Positions 23,580 through 40,550 of a stretch of DNA of 64,000 nt are shown one piece after another (position 1 is the stretch's first letter; each line of letters begins with the position of its first letter). Under the pieces are notes generated by a model that saw nothing but the letters and a program-made list of their open reading frames with translations, had not been told where the DNA came from and searched no databases. The stretch is from the sequence record ON568341.1. One strand, written 5' to 3'. The stretch comes from Escherichia phage UE-S1. Made by a program: the position numbers and the translations under genes.

Positions 23580-23607
23580 TTGCACAGTACTGAAAAAAGC
23601 GTATAAT
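23580..23607 (+). promoter_or_regulatory. early sigma70-type promoter
   Basis: TTGCAC, 16 nt spacer, TATAAT(23602-23607); GTTTTACATC start region then 5' hairpin. Confidence 0.55.
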
Positions 23608-23661
23608 GTTTTACATCGAGAGCGGGAACACTTCCCTACTCACTTTTAAGAGATTAAAACG

Positions 23662-24024
23662 ATGGCGACTCAAATCACTAAAATCATTGCTAACCTGGTT
23701 AACTTCCGCGACGATATGAAAGATCTTCCGGCGGCAACGGTTAAAACTCACATTGACGCATACCGCGAACTGATTAAAATGTTGCCGCTTAAGCGTGAAC
23801 AATACGCCGCTAAACTGATGCTTGATGCGATGATCCATAAGATGATCGCCAGTGATTTGACGATGGTTTATCAGTATATGGGCGAAAATTTCGCGGTGTA
23901 TAGTAAACCAGTACCAGGAATGGAAAGTACAGAAGTATTACACGGTTTAAATTTAAAACAAGATGCATGGGATAATATGCCTCGTTTCCTGGTATGGGCT
24001 GACAGTGGCAAAATTTACGAATAA
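23662..24024 (+). CDS. hypothetical early protein (120 aa)
   Basis: ORF after promoter + leader hairpin; AAGAGA SD-like. Confidence 0.55.
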   Translation: MATQITKIIANLVNFRDDMKDLPAATVKTHIDAYRELIKMLPLKREQYAAKLMLDAMIHKMIASDLTMVYQYMGENFAVYSKPVPGMESTEVLHGLNLKQDAWDNMPRFLVWADSGKIYE

Positions 24025-24037
24025 GTTAAAAATTAGT

Positions 24038-24065
24038 TTGACAGTACTGAATAAAAGCGTATAAT
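24038..24065 (+). promoter_or_regulatory. early sigma70-type promoter
   Basis: TTGACA(24038-24043), 16 nt spacer, TATAAT(24060-24065). Confidence 0.55.
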
Positions 24066-24116
24066 GTTTTACATCAGGTGGGGAATAGTTCCCCACTATA
24101 TAAGAGGATTAAAAAA

Positions 24117-24356
24117 ATGGCTAAATCAAAAATGTTCTTAGGTCACAAAAACAAAACTCATTGGAATGTAAGCCTGTGGATTAATAACGATGAGGGATTG
24201 TATCGGTTGGCCCTGGACTTTATTGCCGCCCATACTAATCGCAATGATGCGGCCCGTCATATGATGTTATTTTTAGAACAGACTGGACAAGATAAAACAC
24301 CGGACGGATTCAAATATAGCACTACTGCGATCCGTGCGGCGATGGTTGGAATGTAA
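24117..24356 (+). CDS. hypothetical early protein (79 aa)
   Basis: ATG 24117 after AAGAGGA SD; paralog of 26157..26396 (KNKTHWNVSLWINN..TPDGFKYSTTAIRAAMVGM). Confidence 0.55.
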   Translation: MAKSKMFLGHKNKTHWNVSLWINNDEGLYRLALDFIAAHTNRNDAARHMMLFLEQTGQDKTPDGFKYSTTAIRAAMVGM

Positions 24357-24442
24357 TAGAATTTATTTAAAGTACTATCATTTTTTTGCGATAGTACTTT
24401 ATAATAGTGTTTTATTCATACACCAACGATAAGGGCAACAGC

Positions 24443-24709
24443 ATGAATATTAAGTATTTTGCGACGCGTGAACAAGCTCGGATCGCCGCACGCCAGGACG
24501 GGGCAACGTTTAAAGATATGGGCGTACAATCGGAACGTGGTAAACGTTGGGCCATTGTAAAGCGTAGTACCGCCAGATCATTACAGTACTGGTTAGCGGC
24601 CTTAAAAAGTCCCGATAGTGTATCGCGTCGAGTGGTAGAAATAAAGCTCGACCGAAAGGGCAACCGCGTGACTGTGTACCGTACTAAAAAGATTGCAGTA
24701 CTTGAATAA
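24443..24709 (+). CDS. hypothetical early protein (88 aa)
   Basis: ATG 24443; paralog of 36151..36546 (FATREQARIAARQ..DRKGNRVTVY). Confidence 0.5.
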   Translation: MNIKYFATREQARIAARQDGATFKDMGVQSERGKRWAIVKRSTARSLQYWLAALKSPDSVSRRVVEIKLDRKGNRVTVYRTKKIAVLE

Positions 24710-24716
24710 AAAGTAC

Positions 24717-24744
24717 TTGCAAACTATGTTTAAAGGCGTATAAT
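24717..24744 (+). promoter_or_regulatory. early sigma70-type promoter
   Basis: TTGCAA(24717-24722), 16 nt spacer, TATAAT(24739-24744); leader hairpin GCGGGAACTCTTCCCGC. Confidence 0.55.
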
Positions 24745-24796
24745 GTTTTACATCGAGAGCGGGAACTCTTCCCGCCTATAACCTGGAGTAATAAAA

Positions 24797-25027
24797 ATGA
24801 CTAATATGTATATGACTGAAGTTAAAACCGTAAAAGATACTACCACGAATAAAACTACTTACTTACAGCGGATCTGTGGTGTATGGCAACGTATCAGCAA
24901 ATCAAAGTACTTTAAATTAACATCATATGCAAACCGTTCGGATTCATTCAGTACTGAAATAAAAGGTAATAAAGTACACCAATACGGCACTTATTATTAT
25001 TACAGCCTGGACGCGATTGCAGTATAA
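24797..25027 (+). CDS. hypothetical early protein (76 aa)
   Basis: ORF after promoter/hairpin; GGAG SD. Confidence 0.5.
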   Translation: MTNMYMTEVKTVKDTTTNKTTYLQRICGVWQRISKSKYFKLTSYANRSDSFSTEIKGNKVHQYGTYYYYSLDAIAV

Positions 25028-25278
25028 TCATATTTTTTGAAAAATTTACAATTGCCGGTATTGACTTATTTTGTCAGTACTGGCATAATGTATTCATTGG
25101 CAGATAAGCCGTAGCCCATAGGGTGCGGGAGTGTATCTATAGAAAAATTAGTTTAGTATAGTTACAATTGTGCACCCGGTGGGTTAGCTGTTGTCATGGG
25201 GTATATTATGCCAGTACTTGATAATGCTGTCAATACTTTTTTTACTATTCAGTACTGAAAACTATTTTTAAAAAGTAC

Positions 25279-25306
25279 TTGCTAACTATGTTTAAAGGCG
25301 TATAAT
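25279..25306 (+). promoter_or_regulatory. early promoter (upstream of tandem promoter pair)
   Basis: TTGCTA, 16 nt spacer, TATAAT(25301-25306). Confidence 0.5.
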
Positions 25307-25400
25307 GTTTTACATCAGGACGGGGAACGAAATAAGTAACCCCGTTAAGTAGTCCAGGAGTAAGACATACGAAAAACTCCCCTGATAAAATAGTTTGACA
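25301..25400. repeat. 100-bp exact repeat (copy 1) carrying structured leader
   Basis: Appears identical by eye to 35214..35313. Confidence 0.7.
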
Positions 25401-25422
25401 AATGTTTTTAAAAGCGTATAAT
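25395..25422 (+). promoter_or_regulatory. early promoter (downstream of tandem promoter pair)
   Basis: TTGACA(25395-25400), 16 nt spacer, TATAAT(25417-25422). Confidence 0.5.
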
Positions 25423-25454
25423 ACTTACATCAACTACTGAATGAGGGTTACAAA

Positions 25455-26066
25455 ATGAAAACTATCACTACTACTACTTTTGTTATGGCTTTTTCTGAAC
25501 TGAACGCAGAACAAAAAACGGCGGCTATCGAACTGGTTCGGGATCGTGAGCGTTCATGTGAGGATAATTTCTTTGCTGAGGGCGTTATCGAGTACTATAA
25601 AGAAACAGTACTACCAGAATACGGCATAGATGAAGCTGAATTGCAATACAGTGGTTTTTGGTCGCAAGGTGACGGTGCATCAATCAGTACTGACAGCGTG
25701 GACGCGGAGAAGTTTTTACGCAAGATTAAAGCGTTAACGAAATATCGTTCTATCCGTCACTTGTTGAATGAAGATGATTTGGCAATGAGTGTAGAACGTT
25801 CACACTCTCGCTACGCACACGAAAACACGGTAAGCGGTTGCGTTGATACTCGCTACACTGATTTAACTGTAAAACAAGCGGCACTTGCTGATGACCTGGA
25901 AAACTTACTGACTGATGCGATCCGTGAATTATCTCGTAAGTTGTACCGTGATTTAGAGAATGCATATGAGGATCAATTCACTACTGAAAACATTACTGCA
26001 CTGATTGAGGGTAACGAATATCAATTCAATGTTATTGATGGCGTAGTGGAATCAATCGAATATTAA
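25455..26066 (+). CDS. hypothetical early protein (203 aa)
   Basis: ORF after dual promoters; GAGGG SD. Confidence 0.55.
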   Translation: MKTITTTTFVMAFSELNAEQKTAAIELVRDRERSCEDNFFAEGVIEYYKETVLPEYGIDEAELQYSGFWSQGDGASISTDSVDAEKFLRKIKALTKYRSIRHLLNEDDLAMSVERSHSRYAHENTVSGCVDTRYTDLTVKQAALADDLENLLTDAIRELSRKLYRDLENAYEDQFTTENITALIEGNEYQFNVIDGVVESIEY

Positions 26067-26078
26067 TTCAAAAAGTAC

Positions 26079-26106
26079 TTGTAAACTAAGTTTAAAAGCG
26101 TATAAT
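26079..26106 (+). promoter_or_regulatory. early sigma70-type promoter
   Basis: TTGTAA, 16 nt spacer, TATAAT(26101-26106); hairpin GCGGGGAGTGGTTCCCCGC. Confidence 0.5.
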
Positions 26107-26156
26107 ACTTTACATCAAGGCGGGGAGTGGTTCCCCGCTCAAACGAGGATTTAAAA

Positions 26157-26396
26157 ATGGCTAGTACTAAAACTTACAACGGACACAAAAACAAAACTCA
26201 TTGGAATGTAAGCCTTTGGATTAATAACGGTGAGTCATTGTATCGGCTTGCACAAAGTTGCATCGCACAAAGTAGAACTAAAGATATTGCTGCGGAATGT
26301 ATGTACCGCAGATTAAAAGCCAACGGTACTACTACAACACCGGACGGATTCAAATATAGCACTACTGCGATCCGTGCTGCAATGGTTGGAATGTAA
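26157..26396 (+). CDS. hypothetical early protein (79 aa)
   Basis: ATG 26157 after ACGAGGA SD; paralog of 24117..24356. Confidence 0.55.
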   Translation: MASTKTYNGHKNKTHWNVSLWINNGESLYRLAQSCIAQSRTKDIAAECMYRRLKANGTTTTPDGFKYSTTAIRAAMVGM

Positions 26397-26453
26397 TATT
26401 CAGTACTGAGATAATGGCGGGTAATAGTTCCCGCCTTTACTGAGGGTTATCTA

Positions 26454-26714
26454 ATGAGTAAAGTAATTAGCTATACAGCACTAAGCAAGACATTATCTAT
26501 TAGCCAGTGCACCGATGGTTATTGGCTATTTGATGAAACGCGTGGCATGAATTTAGCCATGCGTGCAAAAACTGCTGAGGCGGCGTATCTTGAAGCATTG
26601 GAATACTACCAGGAACGTTTAAAGGAAGTAGAAGAAGATTATAAAAGCCTCAAAGCGAAAGTAGATCATTTCGTCGGTCAATTCATCGAGGAAGACGACG
26701 ACAAACAATATTGA
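26454..26714 (+). CDS. hypothetical early protein (86 aa)
   Basis: ORF with GAGGG SD. Confidence 0.5.
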   Translation: MSKVISYTALSKTLSISQCTDGYWLFDETRGMNLAMRAKTAEAAYLEALEYYQERLKEVEEDYKSLKAKVDHFVGQFIEEDDDKQY

Positions 26715-26722
26715 AAAAGTAC

Positions 26723-26750
26723 TTGCAATTAGTTTTCAGTACTGTATAAT
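26723..26750 (+). promoter_or_regulatory. early sigma70-type promoter
   Basis: TTGCAA(26723-26728), 16 nt spacer, TGTATAAT(26743-26750). Confidence 0.55.
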
Positions 26751-26800
26751 GGTTTACATCAAAGGGAGAAATGGTTCTCCCTGGTAATGAGGAAAATAAA

Positions 26801-27022
26801 ATGGCTAATATCACTACTCTTTCCCAACTGGAAGCACTGGTGAAATCTATGCGGGAACATGCCGACAAAATCGGCGTACAAGATCCAGCCGTTTGCTTCT
26901 GCGACGAATTGAATGATGATACACTGGTAATAGCAGAAGTCCAGGACGTTTCTAACTATTCCTCGCGTTACACTGGCGGCGTAGCAAATAAAGGCGACTT
27001 CTGTTTATACCTTACAAAATAA
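26801..27022 (+). CDS. hypothetical early protein (73 aa)
   Basis: ATG 26801 after TGAGGAAA SD and leader hairpin GGGAGAAATGGTTCTCCC. Confidence 0.5.
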   Translation: MANITTLSQLEALVKSMREHADKIGVQDPAVCFCDELNDDTLVIAEVQDVSNYSSRYTGGVANKGDFCLYLTK

Positions 27023-27190
27023 CAACGCGGGGAGATAATAACTCCCCGTTACTTTTTCAGTACTGAATCATTTAATAGACGGATCTCGGCACCCGGTGGG
27101 TTAGTGACTGTTTCGTCTTGATGTAGTAATTATGCCAGTACTGGATGCACTTGTCAACAACTATTTTTCAAATACTTTTTATTAAAATAC

Positions 27191-27218
27191 TTGCAATTAG
27201 TTTTTAAACGCGTATAAT
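27191..27218 (+). promoter_or_regulatory. early sigma70-type promoter
   Basis: TTGCAA(27191-27196), 16 nt spacer, TATAAT(27213-27218). Confidence 0.55.
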
Positions 27219-27265
27219 GTTTTGCATAGGGGGAGCGGTTCCCCTGGTAACTAAGGAATAAGAAA

Positions 27266-27502
27266 ATGCTCGAACAAATCAAATCAACGTCTGCGAATGT
27301 AACGGGAACTGTATCACACTTTACTAGTGATGAATCGCGTGGTGTTCCTTATTGTGCTGTACATGTAAACACTGATGGCAACTACTGGTTTACGGTTTAC
27401 GGATCATATTCATTTGGTCGGCCAGGACATCAAAAAATCCTGGATAAAGTACAGCCAACGGGTAAAAATATCACTGCTGAAATGTTTTATAAAAAATCAT
27501 AA
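27266..27502 (+). CDS. hypothetical early protein (78 aa)
   Basis: ORF after leader hairpin GGGGGAGCGGTTCCCC; AAGGAA SD. Confidence 0.5.
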   Translation: MLEQIKSTSANVTGTVSHFTSDESRGVPYCAVHVNTDGNYWFTVYGSYSFGRPGHQKILDKVQPTGKNITAEMFYKKS

Positions 27503-27507
27503 AGTAC

Positions 27508-27535
27508 TTGATAATAGTTTTTAGTACTGTATAAT
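27508..27535 (+). promoter_or_regulatory. early sigma70-type promoter
   Basis: TTGATA, 16 nt spacer, TGTATAAT(27528-27535). Confidence 0.5.
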
Positions 27536-27586
27536 ATTTTACATCGCAAGGGGGAGCGGTTCCCCCTGGTAACTAAGGATAATAAA

Positions 27587-27886
27587 ATGAAAATTGCAAT
27601 CATCGCCCTGGCTTTATCTGTTTCCTCTTTCGCTGTTAATGCGTCATTAGATGTAAGTAGTGAAAAATTCATTCAGTGCACTGTTGCAATGACCGATGAA
27701 AGTACTGGCGAGATTGTATTAAAGGATTTAGAGATCCAGCCGGAAGCATTTAAAAACGGCCCGTTCCATGAAGAAGACGAAAACGGTAGCACATCAATTT
27801 ATTATGATGCCAGTACTAAACGCGGTTCGGTCACTGTAATGGATACTGAGAAAGTAACGCATACCGGCGTTATTAATTGCCGTTGA
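27587..27886 (+). CDS. small secreted/periplasmic protein (signal peptide)
   Basis: N-term MKIAIIALALSVSSFAVNA-S resembles Sec signal peptide with AxA cleavage site. Confidence 0.5.
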   Translation: MKIAIIALALSVSSFAVNASLDVSSEKFIQCTVAMTDESTGEIVLKDLEIQPEAFKNGPFHEEDENGSTSIYYDASTKRGSVTVMDTEKVTHTGVINCR

Positions 27887-27907
27887 TAGATACTACGGGG
27901 TAACATC

Positions 27908-28138
27908 ATGACTAAGCGAATTGTTTTACTTAACGAAAGCAGTACTACACAACTACTTAACGCCGTGCATTATGATATTGAAACGAGCGTTAATCTTATC
28001 AGTACTGTAGTACTGTTGGACACTGGAAAGGTCGCCAATGATAAAGCGATTGCAGGTATATTAACGGATCTTGAGCCTGGTAGCAGTGCACCAATAACGT
28101 TAAATGGTAAAGTGTTTAATATTTTACTCACTGATTAA
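27908..28138 (+). CDS. hypothetical early protein (76 aa)
   Basis: ORF with GGGG SD-like; followed by terminator. Confidence 0.45.
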   Translation: MTKRIVLLNESSTTQLLNAVHYDIETSVNLISTVVLLDTGKVANDKAIAGILTDLEPGSSAPITLNGKVFNILLTD

Positions 28139-28144
28139 GTACAT

Positions 28145-28166
28145 AGCCCACCTGGTGGGCTTTTTT
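28145..28166 (+). terminator. intrinsic terminator
   Basis: AGCCCACCTGGTGGGCT hairpin + TTTTTT. Confidence 0.6.
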
Positions 28167-28220
28167 GTTTTTGTAGTATCGTAGTACTGAGATACTTTGA
28201 AAATAGTTTTAAGAAAGTAG

Positions 28221-28248
28221 TTGACATTACCGCAGAAAAGCGTAGAAT
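28221..28248 (+). promoter_or_regulatory. early sigma70-type promoter
   Basis: TTGACA(28221-28226), 16 nt spacer, TAGAAT; followed by ~120 nt structured leader. Confidence 0.45.
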
Positions 28249-28371
28249 GTATTACATCAAGACGGGGAGCACTAAGTAGACCGCCAGTAAGTCGAACGAA
28301 AAACTGGACACGTCGAGAAAACTTTGATACACTAATAAACGTAAACTAAACTTTAATTGAGGATTTATAAA

Positions 28372-28854
28372 ATGGCTAATGTAAAATCATTTCTGAAAGC
28401 ACTGATTTCTAACGACACTGCTATTGCGGCTGAATTGCTGGCGGATCTGGATAGCGATACCATGAAAGCAGTACGCAACAATTTTAACATTGCGTACAGT
28501 GAAGCTAAAGAACTGCAAGCCAAAAAGATAGCAGAACTGGAAGAACAGAAAAAAGCCCGTGAAGAAGAACTACAAGCAACGATTGAAAGTATTCAGGCGG
28601 CGGTTGCAGGGTTGGATCTGGAAGTAGTTATTGAAATGGCACATAAAGCACTGGCAGTTAAGTACGGGGAAGATAAGCCAGTAACTAAACCTAAAAAATG
28701 GATTCAGGAACGCGTAACGGTTGTTCTTGATAATGGCGAGGAACATTTAATTCCCGTGCGTGGTAACTGCATTGCGGTAGTTCTGGATGCTATCAAAGAA
28801 AGCGGATTGACTCGCGAGGAATGGATCGAAGCTCACCGCAAAATTGAAGCATAA
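28372..28854 (+). CDS. hypothetical early protein (160 aa)
   Basis: ATG 28372 after TGAGGA SD; track ORF 28357 trimmed. Confidence 0.5.
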   Translation: MANVKSFLKALISNDTAIAAELLADLDSDTMKAVRNNFNIAYSEAKELQAKKIAELEEQKKAREEELQATIESIQAAVAGLDLEVVIEMAHKALAVKYGEDKPVTKPKKWIQERVTVVLDNGEEHLIPVRGNCIAVVLDAIKESGLTREEWIEAHRKIEA

Positions 28855-28875
28855 CAATTAAAGTACTGAATCACT

Positions 28876-28902
28876 AGCCCACTTCTTATAGTGGGCTTTT
28901 TT
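28876..28902 (+). terminator. intrinsic terminator
   Basis: AGCCCAC-ttcttata-GTGGGCT hairpin + TTTTTT. Confidence 0.6.
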
Positions 28903-29129
28903 GTGTTTATCGTTTACCAGTCCACTAGCACCGCCTAGAATCGATTCTAACGCATTAAACTGATTATCTGATGAATAGCCCTAGCTGGTGGCGTTAATGC
29001 CGTTAGAAAGCGATTGAGGACGTTTAAAGTATTTTGCAAAAAGTAATAAAAAGTACTTGCACGATTAAGAGATTAGAGTATAATTAATTACATCAAGACA
29101 AGACACCTTAACTAACTGAGGATATAAAG

Positions 29130-29282
29130 ATGAATACTTATGAACTGGATTGTTTCACTTTACAAGTAATGTCAGTATGCAGTAAAAAAGATTGGTCATC
29201 AAAGGAATTTAAAGCAGTTATTGCGTGTGCAAAACACGGCAAGACTATCAATGAAACGGCATCAATCATTGATAAACTTTAA
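29130..29282 (+). CDS. small early protein (50 aa)
   Basis: TGAGGA SD; preceded by TTGCAC..TATAAT promoter; under ORF-track cutoff. Confidence 0.4.
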   Translation: MNTYELDCFTLQVMSVCSKKDWSSKEFKAVIACAKHGKTINETASIIDKL

Positions 29283-29290
29283 AAAATAGT

Positions 29291-29319
29291 TTGACAATAG
29301 TTTTAAGTACTGCGATAAT
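29291..29319 (+). promoter_or_regulatory. early sigma70-type promoter
   Basis: TTGACA(29291-29296), 17 nt spacer, GATAAT. Confidence 0.45.
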
Positions 29320-29354
29320 ACATACATCAACTACTGAATAGGAATAAAAAAACA

Positions 29355-29582
29355 ATGGCTATCATCATTACTTACGTATCTGGTACTACTGGCACTGCTT
29401 CAACTGTTGCTGTAATTACTAATAAGAAAGGAGCGGAATTACATTTTGCAATGGATAATTGGGCCGTGAAGGAGTTCGGACCGTGGGCAAGTGTAGCATA
29501 CATTGAAACCTATCAAGTGCCATCGATTAGCTTAACTGATTTAGGTGTAGATCGAATCTTATGCCTGGATGAATTAATTTAA
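29355..29582 (+). CDS. hypothetical early protein (75 aa)
   Basis: ORF downstream of promoter; weak SD. Confidence 0.45.
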   Translation: MAIIITYVSGTTGTASTVAVITNKKGAELHFAMDNWAVKEFGPWASVAYIETYQVPSISLTDLGVDRILCLDELI

Positions 29583-29668
29583 AAAAGTACTTGCAAAGTA
29601 AATCGAATAAAGTATAATACATTACATCAAGGGGAGAAAATGGTTCTCCCCACTAAGAGGAAACTAAT

Positions 29669-29812
29669 ATGAAAACTTGTCAATGTGGTAAAAAATCTAT
29701 TACTGGTTTGAAACGGGGCGTTGCACTTTGCCAGTACCATTATAATTTACAAGTATGGGGTAAAGAATGGGCCGATCAAGTGGAAGCAATTAAGAAAGCA
29801 AAAAGTAAGTAA
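29669..29812 (+). CDS. small Cys-containing early protein (47 aa)
   Basis: AGAGGAAA SD after leader hairpin GGGGAGAAAATGGTTCTCCCC; CxC..C pattern. Confidence 0.4.
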   Translation: MKTCQCGKKSITGLKRGVALCQYHYNLQVWGKEWADQVEAIKKAKSK

Positions 29813-29893
29813 AAATATTATCACAGTACTATTGACATAGATTGATAGTACTGGCATAATAGATTTTATCAAGACAACTAAGAGGAAATTAAA

Positions 29894-30238
29894 ATGGCTA
29901 ACATCAATACTATAGCAGCACAAAATATTAACCTGTCTTCTGTTGAAGTTGTACACATTGCCGCCCGGCGTTGGTTCCAGGCGTCTTATGGTAATACTTA
30001 TTTCTCTTTAACGGTAGATGTTGAAATCAATGGCGAATTTATTGAAGTAGTAAACGTGCCGTTCCAATATGGCTACGGGGATCATTTTGACACTGTAGCA
30101 ATGGAAGAATTTAGCAAGGTTATTAATATGGAAGGTAAAGAGTTTTTACGCGGTTCTTATCTTTCCCGTTTTTGCCGTGATAATAATATTACTGTTTATA
30201 GTTCTGTTAGTGATGTTAAACGCAAAAAAGATCTTTAA
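29894..30238 (+). CDS. hypothetical early protein (114 aa)
   Basis: AGAGGAAA SD; paralog of 35732..36055 (shared ..YGYG.. and C-terminal DVKRKKD). Confidence 0.55.
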   Translation: MANINTIAAQNINLSSVEVVHIAARRWFQASYGNTYFSLTVDVEINGEFIEVVNVPFQYGYGDHFDTVAMEEFSKVINMEGKEFLRGSYLSRFCRDNNITVYSSVSDVKRKKDL

Positions 30239-30318
30239 TTAGCTTTACTTTATGCAGATACTTTGATATAGTGTCTGCATAGGGGAAAGAAATTAAATCA
30301 ACTTAAGAGGATAGTAAA

Positions 30319-30588
30319 ATGAAAAATATCAGTACTTTAATCGATGCAGGCACACATGTTCGTCGGTCTATGGTTGCAACCAGTTCTACAAAACAAGTAG
30401 CGAGCGGTTATCTTGTATTTGTGCACGATGGAAAACTCCTGGAACGTTCAATCAATTTTGATGTTAAAAACAATTGCCGTTTTATTATCTTTAAGCGTGA
30501 GCAATATAAAATTGATTTACCAGCAAAGCCCATTAGTGGGGCGTACAACGTGCAATCATTGTTTGAGCGTCAACCATACACCTATTAA
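30319..30588 (+). CDS. hypothetical early protein (89 aa)
   Basis: AAGAGGA SD. Confidence 0.5.
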   Translation: MKNISTLIDAGTHVRRSMVATSSTKQVASGYLVFVHDGKLLERSINFDVKNNCRFIIFKREQYKIDLPAKPISGAYNVQSLFERQPYTY

Positions 30589-33651: not shown

Positions 33652-33715
33652 AAAGTAATTGACAGTACTGAAAGATAGTGTATAATGTTTTATATCTTAA
33701 CTGAGGATAGAAATC

Positions 33716-34072
33716 ATGGGAATACAACATATCACGCGGACCACTGACAATGGCGAGATCACTGGTTATCAAGTACAGGGCAAAGTAGCACAATTGCAGT
33801 ACTGGTTTGTTAAACGTGGAATCATTGCACCGGATCTTGATTATGACCGTGTAGCGTTTATTGATTCTCTTTATGTTGATCCTGATAGTCGGGGCAATGG
33901 TGAAGGTAACGAATTAATGAATGCCTTTATCGATGCCGCCGATGATTCAGATTGTATCATCTTAGAATGCGATACGGGAGAAGATAACGCCTTTAATCTT
34001 AAAGAATGGTACGAAGGATTCGGATTCGAGGTACTGATCGATAGTGAATATCCTATCATGATTTTATCATAG
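33716..34072 (+). CDS. GNAT-family acetyltransferase-like protein
   Basis: LYVDPDSRGNGEGNELMNAF resembles GNAT motif A (R/Q-x-x-G-x-G/A); promoter TTGACA..TGTATAAT upstream. Confidence 0.5.
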   Translation: MGIQHITRTTDNGEITGYQVQGKVAQLQYWFVKRGIIAPDLDYDRVAFIDSLYVDPDSRGNGEGNELMNAFIDAADDSDCIILECDTGEDNAFNLKEWYEGFGFEVLIDSEYPIMILS

Positions 34073-34150
34073 TACTTGCATTTAGTTTTCAGTACTGTTA
34101 TAGTACTTGCATCAAGGGGAAACATCTTCCCCTACTAAGAGGAAATAAAA

Positions 34151-34339
34151 ATGGAAAACTTATCAAGTATTTTAGTACAAGATGATTTCGGTAATCCTGG
34201 AAGTGCTATCATTGTTCGGGGCAATAAAGCAACGTTTGTTATTGCTGGTGGACCCGTACAGCGTAGCATTAAAAATAATGCTGTTACCATTAATAATGTA
34301 CGCTATCGCTTAGATAAAGAATTAATTCATAAACTGTAA
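34151..34339 (+). CDS. hypothetical early protein (62 aa)
   Basis: AAGAGGAAA SD after leader hairpin. Confidence 0.5.
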   Translation: MENLSSILVQDDFGNPGSAIIVRGNKATFVIAGGPVQRSIKNNAVTINNVRYRLDKELIHKL

Positions 34340-34424
34340 AAAAGTACTGGACAATAGATTATAGTACTGTATAATAGTTTACATGAAGGGGAGAAATGAT
34401 TCTCCCCACTAAGAGGAAAGAAAA

Positions 34425-34637
34425 ATGCAAGGTCAACTAATCGTTCGTAAATGGTCTGATACTAACGAAAAACCGTGGGATGTACAATACATCGCCCCAA
34501 ATGGTGAATCCAGATATCAACCAGGTGTAACGCATAGTACTGAGCAATTCGCCGCCGCTCATCGCGAACGTCTGTTACAATCAATGCAGCACGGTTCCGG
34601 TGAAAAATTCATTCAGGATCATTGGCTGAAAGATTAA
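34425..34637 (+). CDS. hypothetical early protein (70 aa)
   Basis: AAGAGGAAA SD after hairpin GGGGAGAAATGATTCTCCCC. Confidence 0.5.
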   Translation: MQGQLIVRKWSDTNEKPWDVQYIAPNGESRYQPGVTHSTEQFAAAHRERLLQSMQHGSGEKFIQDHWLKD

Positions 34638-34723
34638 AAAGTACTTGCACAGTACTGAATAAAGTGTATAATGTTTTATATCGGAAGGGGAATAGTTCCC
34701 CTCCTAACAAAGAGGAAAGTATA

Positions 34724-34897
34724 ATGGTCCAGGTAGAATTAACAGTACTGAAAGATCTGTTTTATCGGATTGGTACTACTGGCGAATATCCGAAGGGTGA
34801 TAATGCAAAACTTTACGTATCACTCGACTTATGGCAACGCGAACAATTAGCAACGGCCTGGCGTAAAGGCAAAGCAGATAGCGAGGTGAAAGCATGA
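34724..34897 (+). CDS. hypothetical early protein (57 aa)
   Basis: ATG 34724 after AGAGGAAA SD; track ORF 34622 trimmed. Confidence 0.45.
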   Translation: MVQVELTVLKDLFYRIGTTGEYPKGDNAKLYVSLDLWQREQLATAWRKGKADSEVKA

Positions 34898-35057
34898 AAG
34901 AATTCTTATTTGAAGTAGTGTTTCAAGGTGTCGGTAATAACCAACTGATTCGAACAAGTGGTTATAATGTTAACCAGGCATGGAATAACATTAAACAAAT
35001 GTACCCGAACGCTATCACATATCGCAACCCGAAAGAAGTTTAAAAATAATTGAAAAA

Positions 35058-35095
35058 GGGATTGACTCCGGTCAGTCCCTTTGCTATTATATACG
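35058..35095 (+). terminator. terminator hairpin with embedded promoter (composite element)
   Basis: AAAAAGGGATTGACTCCGGTCAGTCCCTTTGCTATTATATA. Confidence 0.55.
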
Positions 35096-35191
35096 CATAG
35101 AAACAAATTAGCCCACCGGGTGCATAAATGTATCTATTGTTTGCTGGTGGCTAGTACTATCAAGTACTGAAAACTATTTTTAAAAAAGTAC

Positions 35192-35219
35192 TTGCAAAGT
35201 ATCACGATAAGCGTATAAT
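35192..35219 (+). promoter_or_regulatory. early promoter (upstream of tandem pair)
   Basis: TTGCAA(35192-35197), 16 nt spacer, TATAAT(35214-35219). Confidence 0.55.
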
Positions 35220-35313
35220 GTTTTACATCAGGACGGGGAACGAAATAAGTAACCCCGTTAAGTAGTCCAGGAGTAAGACATACGAAAAACTCCCCTGATA
35301 AAATAGTTTGACA
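35214..35313. repeat. 100-bp exact repeat (copy 2)
   Basis: Appears identical by eye to 25301..25400. Confidence 0.7.
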
Positions 35314-35335
35314 ATAGAAAGTAAACGAGTATAAT
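35308..35335 (+). promoter_or_regulatory. early promoter (downstream of tandem pair)
   Basis: TTGACA(35308-35313), 16 nt spacer, TATAAT(35330-35335). Confidence 0.5.
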
Positions 35336-35368
35336 ACTTACATCAACCACTGATAAGGAAACATTAAA

Positions 35369-35644
35369 ATGCGGACTTTACTTACAGCTAACGAAATCGA
35401 GCAAGTACTGACTACTAATCTGGAACAATGGAAACGTGAAGCAGATATCCAGGCGGTTCAATGCCTTAACGATAAGTTAACGCCAGATGACTTAAGCACG
35501 ATTGTTGATCCACAATTTTATGAAGATATTCACGACACGTCTTTAAGCGTCGAGGATGTACTTGATAAGCACTACATTGATACTGATTTACATGTTTACG
35601 GTCGTAAAAACTTTATCACTATTCACGACATTTACAATACTTAA
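35369..35644 (+). CDS. hypothetical early protein (91 aa)
   Basis: ORF after dual promoters; AAGGAAA SD. Confidence 0.55.
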   Translation: MRTLLTANEIEQVLTTNLEQWKREADIQAVQCLNDKLTPDDLSTIVDPQFYEDIHDTSLSVEDVLDKHYIDTDLHVYGRKNFITIHDIYNT

Positions 35645-35731
35645 GTATTGACAAAGTATCTTAGTACTGTATAATAGTTTACATCAAGCGAGGGGAATGG
35701 TTCCCCTCCTAACAAAGAGAGAGAAATAAAA

Positions 35732-36055
35732 ATGGCTATGATCCTTACCCAGAAAGTAGAACTGAAAATTGTAACCTCCTTTGACATTAAAGTTAATCGG
35801 TGGACTGATAGCCACGGCAATACTTACCACTCCTGCTACGTGTCCGCATTGATTGGTGATCGCTGGGAAGACCTGGGACACGAAACCTTTACATACGGTT
35901 ACGGCACACAAGGCGAGTACACGGGTTTAGAAATCATTAAGGAAACTGTAATAGGTTTCAACCCGAAAGAGAAAGTACTACACAGAATTGAGAAAGAGAT
36001 CAACAAAGAAATTACAGTTCGCTACTACGATGTAAAACGTAAGAAAGACATGTAA
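35732..36055 (+). CDS. hypothetical early protein (107 aa)
   Basis: AGAGAGAGAAA SD after hairpin; paralog of 29894..30238. Confidence 0.55.
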   Translation: MAMILTQKVELKIVTSFDIKVNRWTDSHGNTYHSCYVSALIGDRWEDLGHETFTYGYGTQGEYTGLEIIKETVIGFNPKEKVLHRIEKEINKEITVRYYDVKRKKDM

Positions 36056-36150
36056 TAGAATCCATTTAAAGTACTATTTGACATTGCCCAGATAGTACTT
36101 TATAATAGACTCTAACTTGTAGTACTAACTCAACTAATAGGATGTATACC

Positions 36151-36546
36151 ATGATTACTAAATTCTACGCTACCCGTGAAGCTGCCCGTATTGTTGCACG
36201 CGAGGAAGGAGCAGCATTTAAAGACATGGGCAAAGATGCAACGAAAGGTCAACGCTGGGCCGTACAGTTCAAAGAAATCTCTGATATTGTGAATTCACCT
36301 GAGCCAGTACTGACAGCAGCAGAACTAAAACGAGCGGATATGCTGGCGGCAATACTTGACGCACAAGATGAGTTTATCGCTGACTCTGATATCAAAGTAC
36401 AGGTAAACCACACCGCATGGACTCACGCGGATCACCTGGCAAACCTTAAGCGTCCAAGTGAACTGATTCGCAACCAGAAAGAGATCCGACATGATCGTAA
36501 GGGTAATCGTGTAACAGTATACAGTAAACGCCGCCAGGTTATCTAA
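36151..36546 (+). CDS. hypothetical early protein (131 aa)
   Basis: ATG 36151 after AGGA; paralog of 24443..24709; followed by hairpin GGCGGGA..TCCCGCC + T-run. Confidence 0.55.
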   Translation: MITKFYATREAARIVAREEGAAFKDMGKDATKGQRWAVQFKEISDIVNSPEPVLTAAELKRADMLAAILDAQDEFIADSDIKVQVNHTAWTHADHLANLKRPSELIRNQKEIRHDRKGNRVTVYSKRRQVI

Positions 36547-36607
36547 TAACTTGCAGTACTAACAACACGGCGGGATCAGTTCCCGCCTTTTTTATAGGAC
36601 AAACAAA

Positions 36608-36862
36608 ATGATTAAGGTTCAACTATATAAAGATAACATCTTACGGGTACACTATAAAGCACCTCAGAGAATCATCACAAAGGCCGTACAGCTTGCTAAT
36701 GAGTTTATTAATGGTAACCTATTACCTAGGAAGTTAAGCAACGGAAAACTGCGTGTAATCGACGTGGACACTAACAACAGGATAGTAATCGAGAACACAG
36801 GAAAAATAAACCTATATGAACACCAACAATACAATAAGAAAATAAAACTAATATCACGTTGA
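36608..36862 (+). CDS. hypothetical early protein (84 aa)
   Basis: ORF with AGGA SD-like. Confidence 0.45.
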   Translation: MIKVQLYKDNILRVHYKAPQRIITKAVQLANEFINGNLLPRKLSNGKLRVIDVDTNNRIVIENTGKINLYEHQQYNKKIKLISR

Positions 36863-36915
36863 CAGTACTCAAATGTTTTAGTATTATGTACACATACCAA
36901 CACGGGAGAAACAAA

Positions 36916-37134
36916 ATGAAATTATCTAAAATCGAAAAGAAAACTATTGATGAAGCAGTTAAGCACGGTTATACCTTTCGTAATGATTCACATTTTACCA
37001 ATTTTCAACAGGGGTATCGTACTATTAAAAAACTAATTGACAAAGGTTTATTAGTTGAAGTCAATAATGGGAACGGTATCGAGTATCAGCCAACCCAAGA
37101 CGCATTATCTTTAAAGAAATATAATATTATCTAA
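36916..37134 (+). CDS. hypothetical early protein (72 aa)
   Basis: ATG 36916 after GGGAGAAA; promoter TTGACA(36860)..TATTAT upstream. Confidence 0.5.
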   Translation: MKLSKIEKKTIDEAVKHGYTFRNDSHFTNFQQGYRTIKKLIDKGLLVEVNNGNGIEYQPTQDALSLKKYNII

Positions 37135-37191
37135 TTGACAGTACTCAAATGTTTTAGTACTATATGTACATACCAACACGGGGGAAACAAA

Positions 37192-37434
37192 ATGATTACT
37201 TTAGAAAAACGTATCAAAGAAACTACATCGCTGGTGGAACTGTTAACAGTACTCAAATGTAAAACAACACCATTTAGCACGCCGGACTTTATTAATATGG
37301 TTGATGTTAATGGTCGCTATCGTATCACGGTCGAACAAGGAGCGGCGAAAGTATTCAGTACTAAAAACACGAAGGAAGTGATCCACGCCGTTAATGTTAA
37401 AAAAGTAGTTGCCATTGATAGTAAAGTACTGTAA
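37192..37434 (+). CDS. hypothetical early protein (80 aa)
   Basis: ATG 37192 after GGGGGAAA; promoter/leader duplicated from 36859-36915. Confidence 0.5.
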   Translation: MITLEKRIKETTSLVELLTVLKCKTTPFSTPDFINMVDVNGRYRITVEQGAAKVFSTKNTKEVIHAVNVKKVVAIDSKVL

Positions 37435-37465
37435 TATAGTTTCATTAACTCAAGGAGAACATGCA

Positions 37466-38050
37466 ATGCGTAATTATACTAAATTCATCCGTACACTGTC
37501 AGAAATGGAAACCAACAAAGAGATCCTTTCAGCTTGTCGGTTAGCTGGCCTGGAGATCATCGGTGCTGGTTCTTCCCGTATAGTTTTCGCTTTAAATGAT
37601 CGGTTAGTGATTAAGGTCGCGAATTGTGATGCGGGTGTAGAACAAAATGAAACTGAATGTAAGGTATGGAATTTTTTAGACTATGACCGCCCTCAGTTGA
37701 AACAGTACTTTGCAAAGGTGCATATGCATTTATGCGATCCTGATAATATGTTTATCGTTATGGATCGGTTGAGTACTGCAAGCAAAGGTAGTGTGAAGCA
37801 CGTAAACGCGTGCAATGAATTAAAGTACAATATTAAACGTAATGCAATCGAACGCCATCACCGCTTTGCTGATGCACTACAACACGTCGATGATACATTA
37901 TCAACACTAACGATAAGAGATATCAGAAAACAGAATATCGGCCAGGATCGTAATGGCCTTATTAAAGTACTTGATTACGGTTTAACCTGCAATATCTGGA
38001 ATCAGTACTATAAAAAGCGTGATGTGGCAGCAAGTAAGGTAACACGATAA
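37466..38050 (+). CDS. protein-kinase-like protein (194 aa)
   Basis: G-loop-like GAGSSRIVF, VIKVA lysine motif, RDIRKQNIG catalytic-loop-like, KVLDYG DFG-like; AAGGAGAA SD. Confidence 0.55.
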   Translation: MRNYTKFIRTLSEMETNKEILSACRLAGLEIIGAGSSRIVFALNDRLVIKVANCDAGVEQNETECKVWNFLDYDRPQLKQYFAKVHMHLCDPDNMFIVMDRLSTASKGSVKHVNACNELKYNIKRNAIERHHRFADALQHVDDTLSTLTIRDIRKQNIGQDRNGLIKVLDYGLTCNIWNQYYKKRDVAASKVTR

Positions 38051-38067
38051 AAAAGATTAAAAAAGGG

Positions 38068-38105
38068 ATTGACTCCGGTCAGTCCCTTTGCTATTATATA
38101 TCCAT
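38068..38105 (+). terminator. terminator hairpin with embedded promoter (composite element)
   Basis: AAAAAAGGGATTGACTCCGGTCAGTCCCTTTGCTATTATATA. Confidence 0.55.
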
Positions 38106-38191
38106 TGAGAGATAACTCACTGACCCATAGGGTGCGGAAGTGTATCTATTATATAAGTATTCAGTACTGAAAACTATTTTTAAAAAAGTAC

Positions 38192-38219
38192 TTGCAAACT
38201 ATCTCAATGAGCGTATAAT
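38192..38219 (+). promoter_or_regulatory. early sigma70-type promoter
   Basis: TTGCAA(38192-38197), 16 nt spacer, TATAAT(38214-38219). Confidence 0.55.
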
Positions 38220-38274
38220 GTTTTATATCGAGAGGGGGAAATGGTTCTCCCTAGTACTAAAAGGAATCAAGACG

Positions 38275-38496
38275 ATGACTACTATGACCTGCGTTCACGC
38301 TTCAAATCTTCTGAATGATGCAGCATTTAAAGCAGGTGAAGAATATCAATGCTATCGGGATGAAAATAAAAAAGTTTTTGTAGTTGATAATAATGGTTTC
38401 CATATTGAATTACAATCCGGCTTCACTGGTTTAAATGGTAAATCAGTATGGGGCGTACAGGATGATAAAGGTACATATCATTTTAAACGTAATTAA
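38275..38496 (+). CDS. hypothetical early protein (73 aa)
   Basis: ATG 38275 after AAAAGGAAT SD and leader hairpin GGGGGAAATGGTTCTCCC. Confidence 0.5.
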   Translation: MTTMTCVHASNLLNDAAFKAGEEYQCYRDENKKVFVVDNNGFHIELQSGFTGLNGKSVWGVQDDKGTYHFKRN

Positions 38497-38577
38497 GTAT
38501 TGACAAAGTATATCAGTACTGTATAATAGTTTACATCAAGGGGAGAATGGTTCTCCCCACTAAAAGGAAACAAAATT

Positions 38578-38850
38578 ATGTCCAGCTACTCCGCTACTAT
38601 GATCATTAAAGATATGAACGGTAATCCTACTTCTGCTGGTGGATCATTTGGAAACATTAATTTAGATGGTCGGTTATCCATGCAATCAGCCATCGATGCA
38701 GCGAAAGAAGTTTTTAAGAATGAATGTACTGTTAGTAAGCTGGATTATATGGGTTTCGCTATCGAGAAAACTACTCGTTTTGTGAACTACAAAAATCCAC
38801 TGATGATTGATACTAACCTGAAAGCTAACGAAGTGGGGTACTTATTATGA
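38578..38850 (+). CDS. hypothetical early protein (90 aa)
   Basis: AAAAGGAAA SD after hairpin; promoter TTGACA..TGTATAAT. Confidence 0.55.
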   Translation: MSSYSATMIIKDMNGNPTSAGGSFGNINLDGRLSMQSAIDAAKEVFKNECTVSKLDYMGFAIEKTTRFVNYKNPLMIDTNLKANEVGYLL

Positions 38851-39038
38851 CAGTAGAAGAAGTAAAAAAAGTACTGGCAGTACTACGATATCATAATCAT
38901 TGCAAGGTGAAGAATGATCCTGATTATCTTGATTCATCCCTGGAGGAAGACACCTTGAACGCTATAAGCCATATGCAGACATTAGCAAAGCGTATGACTG
39001 AAAAGAACATGCCGGACTATATCGGAAATAAAATTTAA
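38847..39038 (+). CDS. hypothetical early protein (63 aa)
   Basis: ATGA overlap with previous gene. Confidence 0.45.
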   Translation: MTVEEVKKVLAVLRYHNHCKVKNDPDYLDSSLEEDTLNAISHMQTLAKRMTEKNMPDYIGNKI

Positions 39039-39124
39039 AAAGTACTTGCATTGTAGTTAGATTAACGTATAATGTTTTATATCGAGAGGGGAAATGGTTT
39101 CCCCTCAAGTCCAGGAGATACACC

Positions 39125-39388
39125 ATGAACACTATCGAAATCACTATCAATGCACACGTATACGACAACGTAGTACTGCAAACTACTATGACCGCCAATG
39201 ATACCAGTACTTTGCGGAATACTGTTATTAGTGCTGTATGTGCCGCTATCGGTGATGTATCCCTGGAAAATTCAGAACACATCAACAACGGTTTCACTAT
39301 GTGCAAACGTGATAACGCAAAACATATCATCGTGGAAGGTTACGGCGGTGTAGAATTTAATGTTTATATGAAAAAAGTACTTGCATAA
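39125..39388 (+). CDS. hypothetical early protein (87 aa)
   Basis: CAGGAGA SD after hairpin GGGGAAATGGTTTCCCC. Confidence 0.5.
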   Translation: MNTIEITINAHVYDNVVLQTTMTANDTSTLRNTVISAVCAAIGDVSLENSEHINNGFTMCKRDNAKHIIVEGYGGVEFNVYMKKVLA

Positions 39389-39455
39389 TAACTAAAACAA
39401 AGTATAATGTTTTGCATAGGGGGAGATATCCTCCCCCACTAAAAGGAGTAATAAA

Positions 39456-39680
39456 ATGGCTAACTTTGATGAACTGATGCGGGAAGTAGCTTACCTGGCA
39501 GAAGAGAAGAAATCATTCGATTCTATCTATAACACCGCTCACCGTGATTCAGTACTGGCATGTAACCAGGATCAAAAAGATGAACTAATCGCCACCTATC
39601 ATGAAGCATGGAAGTACTACCGACAATGGGAGAAAGAAGAAAGTGAGTCTACCATTGACGGCCTCAATAATCTAATCTAA
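39456..39680 (+). CDS. hypothetical early protein (74 aa)
   Basis: AAAAGGAG SD after hairpin GGGGGAGATATCCTCCCCC. Confidence 0.5.
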   Translation: MANFDELMREVAYLAEEKKSFDSIYNTAHRDSVLACNQDQKDELIATYHEAWKYYRQWEKEESESTIDGLNNLI

Positions 39681-39756
39681 AAGTTTTATTTCAGTACTAT
39701 TGACATAGCTTGATAGTACTGATGTAATAACTTTACTAACTACAAGGGGAAACATA

Positions 39757-40014
39757 ATGGATCAATTCACACAATATCGGGTAAATCCTCAAGCTATGGC
39801 CTACGTAGAAGACCATAAAACGTTACCAGTACTGCAACCAGTTAAAGGCCGTATCTATCGTGGCCTTGCCTGGGATACGGCCCAGGATGGATATAAAACC
39901 GTCGCCGTGGGTATGTATTGCGGTGATGGTGAATGGTTTGATCCAAATAATCCGGTATCCATTGACAGTACTGAAAAAATGAAATGGGCCGACTACATCG
40001 AAGATATTTCATAA
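39757..40014 (+). CDS. hypothetical early protein (85 aa)
   Basis: AAGGGGAAA SD; promoter TTGACA..GATGTAAT. Confidence 0.5.
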   Translation: MDQFTQYRVNPQAMAYVEDHKTLPVLQPVKGRIYRGLAWDTAQDGYKTVAVGMYCGDGEWFDPNNPVSIDSTEKMKWADYIEDIS

Positions 40015-40104
40015 AAACTATTTGACAGTACTAACCAGTAATGTATAATGTTTTACATAGAGCGGGGGAATAGTTCTCCCGCCAATAGTTTGGAGTAAAA
40101 CATT

Positions 40105-40305
40105 ATGTCTATCGCTATCGCCCTGGTTGAAGTACTGAAAGAAGCTAAAGCCAACCTTATCGACGTAAAGATCCAGGAACTACAAAACGGCTTAATCGGC
40201 TGTACTTGTACCGCTGGTGGAGCGGCAGACTATCGAGAACACGAATCACTCGAATCACTGGTTCGGTATCTTACCATGATCGTTGATGATTGGAGAATCA
40301 TCTAA
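40105..40305 (+). CDS. hypothetical early protein (66 aa)
   Basis: TGGAG SD after hairpin GCGGGGGAATAGTTCTCCCGC. Confidence 0.5.
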   Translation: MSIAIALVEVLKEAKANLIDVKIQELQNGLIGCTCTAGGAADYREHESLESLVRYLTMIVDDWRII

Positions 40306-40322
40306 CAAAAAAGAATAAAAAA

Positions 40323-40360
40323 AGGGATTGACTCCGGTCAGTCCCTTTGCTATTATATAC
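40323..40360 (+). terminator. terminator hairpin with embedded promoter (composite element)
   Basis: AAAAAAAGGGATTGACTCCGGTCAGTCCCTTTGCTATTATATA. Confidence 0.55.
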
Positions 40361-40550
40361 GCATAGACAAAAACTAGCCCACAGGGTGCATAGGTGTATC
40401 CAAAATATATAGTTAATAACGGTGAGTAACTATCTGCTGGTGGAACTAAAACTATTAATAAAAAAGTATTGACAAAGTATATCAGTACTGCAATAATGTA
40501 TCTCGTAGGGCGGCAATGGTGCGACGGCCCACAAAGTTAGGAGATTCACC

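Follow-up and report, generated by a model that had tools for sequence, protein, structure and literature searches.

This analysis concerns the palindromic hexamer AGTACT in a 64,000-nt stretch of Escherichia phage UE-S1 (sequence record ON568341.1), referred to here as the window. Megablast aligned the window to the Asteriusvirus jumbo coliphages 121Q, PBECO4, phAPEC6, ph0011, and fEgEco12, whose genomes are 350 to 380 kb, at ~88 to 93% identity and in a mosaic pattern. A direct terminal repeat of 20,993 bp has been mapped experimentally in fEgEco12 (PMC13070987), and two independent alignments to that phage, one at its left end and one at the right junction, place the start of the corresponding repeat in the window at ~21,917 and its end at ~42.9 kb. 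These boundaries, which are inferred from the relative, divide the window into a right unique end (1 to 21.9 kb), a terminal repeat with small early genes (21.9 to 42.9 kb), and a left unique region that begins at 42.9 kb. Gene calls within the window come from our own simple codon model. The right unique end holds an array of RCC1-like genes, named after the annotation of the relatives (RCC1, regulator of chromosome condensation, or DNA condensation proteins), and the terminal repeat holds a family of early promoters. AGTACT is found in the intergenic hairpins of the former and in the promoters of the latter (Table 1).

The window contains 257 copies of AGTACT, compared with 20.9 ± 4.3 in dinucleotide shuffles (shuffle maximum, 31), and AGTACT is the most frequent of all 4,096 hexamers, ahead of every A/T-rich word. 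Markov models of orders 1, 2, and 3 predict 20, 47, and 101 copies, respectively; the expectations at orders 2 and 3 are raised because these models contain the sub-words of AGTACT itself. A preliminary description of this DNA had reported a very high density of the word between 23,580 and 40,520, a range that lies within the terminal repeat, and the excess proved larger than had been noted: 111 copies of AGTACT against 5.5 expected from composition, including 26 copies of CAGTACTG. Across the window, CAGTACTG is present 68 times, with 0.87 expected. The density of AGTACT drops at ~42 to 43 kb, and the low-GC arrays of small open reading frames (ORFs) just past the terminal repeat form a patchy stretch that is poor in the word. 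In ph0011 (348 kb), the only relative that we counted as a complete genome, there are 748 copies where 118 are expected, and AGTACT is again the top hexamer.

Most of these copies are independent of one another. The flanks of 204 of the 257 sites in the window are unlike those of any other site, 53 sites have a near-duplicate context, and ~20% lie in repeated promoter or terminator contexts. The preliminary description had allowed that the enrichment might vanish once copies of the promoter consensus were discounted; the unique flanks, together with the excess inside genes reported below, show that it does not. Because only the positions beside the hexamer carry information (none beyond ±3 nt, with C favored at −1 and G at +1), AGTACT is a short word and not a long repeat, and a long repeat or mobile element was rejected as its source. 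The extended dyad consensus is TTC-AGTACT-GAA, with outer flanks that are T-rich on the 5′ side and A-rich on the 3′ side. The TTC half-flank accounts for 12% of half-sites (~2% expected), and the two halves make independent contributions. G at −1 is disfavored, at 7 to 10%, in all five genera tested. The preferred −1 base is C in Asteriusvirus and Klebsiella phage RaK2 and A in Salmonella phage Munch, Pectobacterium phage CBB, and Cronobacter phage GAP32, while the core hexamer is constant. In ph0011, exact AGTACT is enriched 6.35-fold, compared with 0.5- to 1.8-fold for its single-mismatch neighbors.

The early promoters of the terminal repeat share ~50 bp of similarity, in the order A-tract, AGTACT, −35 hexamer, spacer, TATAAT, gtttta. 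Counting from the first T of TATAAT, 36 copies of AGTACT start at three fixed positions: −27 (17 copies), −17/−16 (6 copies), and −7 (13 copies). The −35 hexamer is TTGCAA or TTGACA at −22 to −17; the words abut both of its sides, sharing one base, as well as the upstream edge of the −10 element, and they lie about one helical turn apart. That AGTACT belongs to the −35 context, as the preliminary description had it, was borne out by the 17 promoters with a word at −27 and by 6 copies of AAAGTACTTGCAA and 13 copies of AAGTACTTGCA; the word flanks the −35 hexamer and is not that hexamer itself. Its assignment to an extended −10 element was off by one base. AGTACT[G/T]TATAAT occurs 13 times and CAGTACTGTATAAT 6 times, and because the TG of CAGTACTG is immediately followed by TATAAT, as it is in CAGTACTGTATAAT and TGTATAAT, the sequence is not the canonical TGnTATAAT, and we rejected an extended −10 element. 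The early promoters of the distantly related Munch match the UE-S1 layout, AGTACT starting at −27 to −30 and again at −7, and their −10 context, AGTACTTTATAAT, has no TG. An exact 44-nt direct repeat lies just 5′ of the first early promoter of the window. The spacing of sites in the terminal repeat shows a weak helical periodicity (Rayleigh P of ~0.04 at 10 bp), which we attribute to promoter geometry.

Downstream of all four early promoters that we folded lies a G/C-rich leader hairpin (−8 to −14 kcal/mol, with z-scores of −2.1 to −2.7), and homology breakpoints between the window and ph0011 lie near promoters, at a median distance of 83 bp compared with 209 bp for random positions. The word-carrying promoters thereby resemble the PeSL cassettes of T4-type phages, which combine strong sigma70 promoters, A-rich upstream sequence, G/C stem-loops, small orphan genes, and breakpoints (PMC2839356) and which mediate modular shuffling (PMC2839356, PMC4122927), except that the stem-loop here is downstream of the promoter and not upstream. 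PeSL is a cassette and not a hexamer, however; GTACT does not occur anywhere in the PeSL paper, and the cassettes cover a minority of AGTACT sites. Because the breakpoints cluster at the ~50-bp cassettes, the earlier suggestion of a recombination hotspot is supported for the cassette but not for the hexamer.

Of the 55 terminator-like hairpins in the window, 15 carry AGTACT and account for ~20 sites. Nearly all of these 15 lie at 6.3 to 16.9 kb, mostly on the minus strand, within and just upstream of the RCC1-like array. The arms GCCAGTACT..AGTACTGGC that the preliminary description had ascribed to array terminators are therefore real but lie outside 23,580 to 40,520; the terminators within 23.6 to 40.5 kb use other stems. 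The contexts named in that description, promoters and terminators, thus exist, with 36 promoter sites and ~15 hairpins, but they miss most of the signal, since a large share of it lies inside genes.

Table 1. Features of the window that carry AGTACT or adjoin it, with Pfam matches in the terminal repeat
Feature	Coordinates	Strand	Remarks
Terminator-like hairpins, arms GCCAGTACT..AGTACTGGC then T-run	9921-9952, 11188-11210, 11998-12020, 13212-13237, 14394-14421, 15653-15672, 16845-16871	-	Between RCC1-like paralogues
Hairpin AGTCCAGTACTattcAGTACTGGAttttt	6752..6777	-	AGTACT in both arms
RCC1-like array, nine paralogous genes of ~375-395 aa	7481-18024	-	Most separated by an AGTACT-armed hairpin, then TATAAT
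Inferred direct terminal repeat, early-gene region	21917..42910	+	138 AGTACT sites, densest zone; from alignment to fEgEco12
Exact 44-nt direct repeat, 2 copies, 53 nt apart	23452..23548	+	Each copy has TTCAGTACTGAA and a second AGTACT
~26 sigma70-type early promoters	23575..40918	+	Consensus aaAAAGTACTTGCAa-N14-gcgTATAATgtttta
Example promoter AAAGTACTTGCACAGTACTGaaaaaagcgTATAAT	23575..23607	+	Words at −27 and −16
Example promoter TTGACAGTACTGaataaaagcgTATAAT	24038..24065	+	Word overlaps final base of −35 hexamer
Example promoter AAGTACTTGCAattagttttCAGTACTGTATAAT	26718..26750	+	Words at −27 and −7
AGTACT-poor stretch, patchy	44000..54000	+	44-46 kb, 0 sites; 50-52 kb, 0; 52-54 kb, 1
DUF7249 paralogues (Pfam)	24078-24356, 26127-26396		Terminal-repeat early genes
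DksA/TraR-type zinc finger (Pfam)	33394-33651		Terminal-repeat early gene
GNAT acetyltransferase (Pfam)	33716-34072		Terminal-repeat early gene
ParE-like toxin domain (Pfam)	36608-36862		Terminal-repeat early gene
Protein kinase, weak match (Pfam)	37409-38050		Terminal-repeat early gene

About 46% of the sites in the window are within genes, at 2.8 per kb, and the remainder are intergenic, at 6.7 per kb; 0.34 per kb is expected. The window genes contain 125 sites, compared with 42.7 ± 5.6 after synonymous-codon shuffling and 21 after shuffling of codon order. In the 100- to 300-kb part of ph0011, the structural and replication half of that genome (92% coding), 280 genic sites compare with 88.8 ± 7.4 after synonymous shuffling. 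Wherever the encoded protein permits AGTACT, 31 to 42% of positions carry it, and at Ser-Thr positions its occupancy is 37 to 50%, compared with 14% expected from codon usage. Amino acid content is affected as well: the window genes encode 134 Ser-Thr dipeptides (74 expected), 59 of them written AGT-ACT, and 123 Val-Leu dipeptides (76 expected). Because AGTACT is enriched in all three reading frames, it is not a peptide motif, and synonymous shuffling, which leaves the peptides as they are, removes two-thirds of the sites. AGTACT is selected at the DNA level, against both codon and amino acid usage.

The word is also conserved beyond its surroundings. In an alignment of the window with ph0011 at 88% identity, 80% of AGTACT sites are intact, compared with 68% of hexamers lying 7 to 18 nt from the sites and 58% of all hexamers. 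By class, 31/36 promoter sites are intact, as are 80/104 coding sites (77%, compared with 56% for coding hexamers generally) and 80/99 other noncoding sites (compared with 63%). Individual sites turn over, but more slowly than the sequence around them.

We looked for the word in other genomes, sampled as 24- to 50-kb pieces. AGTACT was in excess in Munch (first 50 kb, 205 observed versus 16.7 expected), RaK2 (40 kb, 95 versus 13.2), CBB (25 kb, 57 versus 8.3), GAP32 (25 kb, 53 versus 8.4), Yersinia phage fHe-Yen9-04 (24.5 kb, 96 versus 7.9), and Xanthomonas phage XaC1 (24.5 kb, 93 versus 8.2). It was scarce in the repeat region of Pseudomonas phage PA5oct (30 kb, 2 versus 10.1), in T4 (40 kb, 4 versus 13.5), and in Escherichia coli K-12 (50 kb, 3 versus 11.6, or 0.06 sites per kb). 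Enrichment was thus 6- to 12-fold in seven lineages, ph0011 and the six sampled, compared with 0.2- to 0.3-fold in the other three samples. Since all six sampled relatives were enriched and the three comparison genomes depleted, AGTACT marks a single phage lineage whose members infect at least seven host genera from two orders, and the word is rare in the host itself. The depletion in the T4 and E. coli samples led us to reject a composition effect driven by the host.

Within the ph0011 genome, the word is densest at the terminal-repeat end, where successive 10-kb bins hold 64, 59, and 39 copies; other bins hold 9 to 33, and 3.4 are expected. Density declines monotonically from the genome ends (rho = −0.79 over 10-kb bins); inside ORFs of ≥150 amino acids, it drops from 2.8 to 1.0 per kb.

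Phages normally avoid restriction targets and purge short palindromes. AGTACT is the recognition sequence of ScaI and has the sharpness of an enzyme target, but it has been multiplied and not avoided; with a 6- to 12-fold overrepresentation, the data show the opposite of restriction site avoidance. Other palindromes are scarce. GGTACC and CGTACG are absent from the window, where ~6 of each are expected by hand calculation, and ph0011 has CAGCTG, GTCGAC, and TGGCCA once each, GACGTC twice, and ACCGGT five times. Beside the excess of AGTACT, this scarcity looks like classic restriction avoidance.

Several other known systems invite comparison. Chi (GCTGGTGG) and DNA uptake sequences are, like AGTACT, sharp, overrepresented words found genome-wide, and they tell own from foreign DNA, as AGTACT may. 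Known Chi sequences are asymmetric, orientation biased, and read on single strands, and DNA uptake sequences are also found in terminators as inverted pairs and influence peptide composition. Both kinds of word are asymmetric and depend on orientation, whereas AGTACT is a palindrome with a putative reader. The SlmA site of E. coli (GTGAGTACTCAC) has the identical six-base core within a 12-bp dyad, but the outer bases that it requires, G1, T2, and a purine at position 3, are depleted here two- to fourfold. The nearest known phenomenon is HIP1 (GCGATCGC) of cyanobacteria, likewise a short, perfect palindrome that is hyperabundant taxon-wide, both within and between ORFs. According to two reports (PMC5861425, PMC4390886), HIP1 is conserved above background, which is taken as a sign of selection, and shares its genomes with orphan methyltransferases, and its function is still given as unresolved. 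AGTACT has the same marks: compositional excess, presence within and between ORFs beyond codon usage, conservation, and a taxon-wide distribution with word-poor outgroups. The two differ in length and degree, HIP1 having eight bases and a 15- to 300-fold excess and AGTACT six bases and a 6- to 12-fold excess (up to 20-fold locally). HIP1 is a feature of cells, whereas AGTACT belongs to a virus lineage, is concentrated in a terminal repeat, and is woven into early promoters. Methyltransferases that recognize HIP1 are known; for AGTACT there are only candidate ones, predicted from sequence.

We found no mention of AGTACT abundance in the papers searched, including the genome papers on RaK2, CBB, Sharanji, fEgEco12, and PA5oct, and a hyperabundant, selected palindrome in a virus lineage appears, by comparison with the systems above, to be new. 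A lineage of ~350-kb phages with Escherichia, Salmonella, Klebsiella, Cronobacter, Pectobacterium, Yersinia, and Xanthomonas hosts has raised a restriction-type palindrome to its commonest hexamer, at a cost in codon and even amino acid choice, which implies a strong and ancient DNA-reading function. For jumbo phages that have neither a nucleus nor hypermodified bases, the word may bear on how the phage's own DNA is marked or managed. It also offers a simple sequence signature for spotting the clade in metagenomes, a defined and testable set of sites in the early promoters, and a tractable viral model for the HIP1 problem.

The preliminary description had proposed that AGTACT could be a binding site for a phage protein, a modification target, or a recombination hotspot. 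The exact palindrome, the selection, the conservation, and the restriction to one lineage support the idea that it is read at the DNA level, but the data do not separate these three functions. Because the word is perfectly palindromic, with symmetry that extends into its flanks, is sharply specified, is confined to a lineage whatever the host, and is selected inside genes, we infer that its reader would be a symmetric duplex-DNA protein, phage encoded and conserved in the clade. The reading that we favor, tentatively, is that AGTACT is a selected, lineage-specific word of RaK2-like jumbo phages, bound on duplex DNA by a putative conserved phage-encoded protein with twofold symmetry that does not modify it. 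We rank a noncatalytic binder first because of the 12-bp dyad and because the promoter geometry is conserved between genera. With AGTACT rare in the host and abundant in phage DNA, such a protein would be recruited selectively to the phage genome. The words of the terminal repeat interleave with the −35 and −10 elements of early promoters that would be served by host RNA polymerase, and occupancy there would overlap the polymerase footprint, so that early transcription might be shut off or tuned.

Several observations weigh against a binding protein of this kind. Most sites lie within genes, where a role in transcription would not make sense, and outside the early region of ph0011 the word is found at 1.52 per kb in coding and 1.37 per kb in noncoding DNA, with near-Poisson spacing. 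The gap between the exact word and its single-mismatch neighbors resembles what is typical for restriction or modification enzymes more than what is seen with regulators. The three promoter positions are the only hexamer-sized gaps clear of the −35 and −10 elements, and the geometry could be simple packing into free space. Pfam identified no helix-turn-helix among 30 window ORFs scanned, all but one of which lie in the terminal repeat. Scans extended to 36 window ORFs yielded no DNA-binding candidate, their hits also including a pyrimidine-dimer glycosylase. A broader version, possible though doubtful, is that AGTACT serves a virus-encoded discrimination of self from nonself by word density, at 2 to 6 words per kb in phage DNA compared with ~0.06 in the host sample, as a palindromic counterpart of Chi or HIP1 read by a putative conserved jumbo phage protein. 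If true, this could spare the phage genome during host DNA breakdown, direct repair or methylation, or load a phage-specific chromatin or regulatory protein.

The enzyme-like sharpness would suit a modification target. On this account a conserved, phage-encoded orphan DNA methyltransferase acts on AGTACT and makes it an HIP1-like epigenetic self-mark, for instance to separate incoming from freshly replicated DNA at early promoters, to discriminate strands, or to give protection; we consider it unlikely, though a serious contender. HIP1, the closest analogue, is recognized by two orphan methyltransferases according to two reports (PMC4390886; bioRxiv 10.64898/2026.06.24.733823). AGTACT, as the ScaI target, is a genuine type II specificity, the preference for the exact hexamer is sharp, and flank effects are weak. 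A Dam-family methyltransferase (PF05869) with a conserved neighboring cytidylyltransferase is found in Asteriusvirus, Munch, RaK2/K64-1, XaC1, and fHe-Yen9-04, and CBB and GAP32 also encode adenine methyltransferases. The PF05869 gene of ph0011 is at 62403 to 62927, and its UE-S1 homologue lies outside the window. Every enriched lineage checked thus has a candidate methyltransferase, and the genome paper of the word-poor PA5oct mentions none. However, RaK2 DNA was reported to behave as if methylated in the Dam, Dcm, and CpG fashion (PMC3622015), and because of the Dam-type methylation a GATC enzyme fits better than an AGTACT enzyme. The PF05869 family is also widespread among unrelated phages, and a methyltransferase alone gives no reason for the sites to multiply, so that a reader would still be needed. 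The DNA of fEgEco12 is cut as predicted by ten enzymes, none of which probes AGTACT. The gradient toward the genome ends brings up a Chi-like word, at which a nuclease or helicase-nuclease of phage or host would be attenuated or switched to recombination, so that phage DNA would survive the breakdown of word-poor host DNA or recombination between the terminal repeats would be promoted. The terminal repeat is densest, canonical Chi clusters there too (9 copies on one strand versus 0.2 expected), the density of AGTACT per kb is ~30 to 100 times lower in the host sample, and sharp specificity and genome-wide scatter are shared with Chi. We nevertheless judge this improbable. A perfect palindrome can have no orientation, which argues for duplex recognition and against a Chi-like reading; the gradient also parallels gene class, the two ends holding early genes and the middle structural ones; and synonymous occupancy shifts only from 0.42 to 0.31 along it.

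The remaining explanations fare worse. Biased repair or gene conversion might keep producing functionless copies, and the difference of ~20% of sites between 88%-identical genomes, the mild enrichment of near-cognates (1.3- to 1.8-fold), and the near-Poisson scatter outside the early region are what such a neutral drive would leave. But sites are better conserved than their flanks, the same argument that was taken as selection for HIP1 (PMC5861425), and the word persists across genera with ~29% nucleotide identity and different host orders. The expected deamination products, AGTATT and AATACT, are not depleted (1.02-fold), so a drive of the very-short-patch type does not fit and was not supported; we regard neutral drive in general as very improbable. 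Still less likely is that the word is merely part of an early promoter and terminator consensus spread by PeSL-like shuffling. The ~50-bp promoter family, its G/C-rich leader hairpins, and the breakpoints close to promoters, which match PeSL, are in its favor, yet near-duplicate contexts cover at most about one-fifth of sites. With 119 to 125 sites within window genes, 280 versus 89 expected in the structural and replication genes of ph0011, and unique contexts elsewhere, duplication of cassettes was refuted as the sole cause. Finally, the sites might be decoys for the host nucleoid occlusion protein SlmA, blocking or freeing cell division, since the SlmA consensus contains the exact AGTACT core (PMC3020112). 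SlmA requires G1 and T2, however (PMC3020112), and GTR flanks number 4 versus 14.6 expected in the window and 21 versus 41.9 in ph0011. There is no full site anywhere, G at −1 is underused in all genera, and existing mutational data predict no binding of SlmA to TTCAGTACTGAA. The word is also enriched in a Xanthomonas phage and depleted in T4, which has the same host. The decoy idea was rejected on flank composition and the Xanthomonas phage, and we give it almost no credence.

Canonical Chi sequences in the terminal repeat are at 22512, 28984, 33113, 34244, 35143, 37230, 38635, 40213, and 40436, all on the plus strand, and ph0011 likewise has nine same-strand copies in its first 23 kb. An inverse Chi at 22500 and the plus-strand Chi at 22512 are the arms of the hairpin CCACCAGCttgtGCTGGTGG (22500 to 22519), ~600 bp from the inferred genome end; four more inverse copies lie at 11.3 to 11.8 kb. 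In ph0011, a C5-cytosine DNA methyltransferase gene (287301 to 289181) is split by an intein with a LAGLIDADG homing endonuclease domain, and the RaK2 homologue, gp194, has no intein.

Judging from their Pfam matches, the early genes of the terminal repeat listed in Table 1 look like host takeover candidates. The segment from 23000 to 41000 matches 225 phage records, compared with 36 to 43 for the adjoining segments of the window, and these include Campylobacter, Phapecoctavirus, and Justusliebigvirus phages at 60 to 80% identity; going by these matches, some short element of the terminal repeat is common to phages well outside the clade. A terminase-based search for relatives in viral contigs returned two loci only. 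An Rfam search of the window gave no hits. ARAGORN called a tRNA-Cys (anticodon ACA) at 58070 to 58154, within overlapping ORFs and without an Rfam tRNA there, and this call is probably a false positive. A 64-nt element, AATTTTGGGCGTAA..GCACCC..GGG..TTTCTCG, without an Rfam match, is present at 22997 to 23060 and 23214 to 23277, near the inferred genome terminus, with similar sequences at ~22640 and 25130 to 25190. It may contribute to the ~3-fold excess of GTGCAC/TGCACC across the clade. Just before the inferred repeat boundary, at 20000 to 21600, lies a tandem family of small paralogous genes with a period of 184 to 405 bp and common starts such as ATGAATAACCACAAAGAATACTACATAGAGAAACTCCC.

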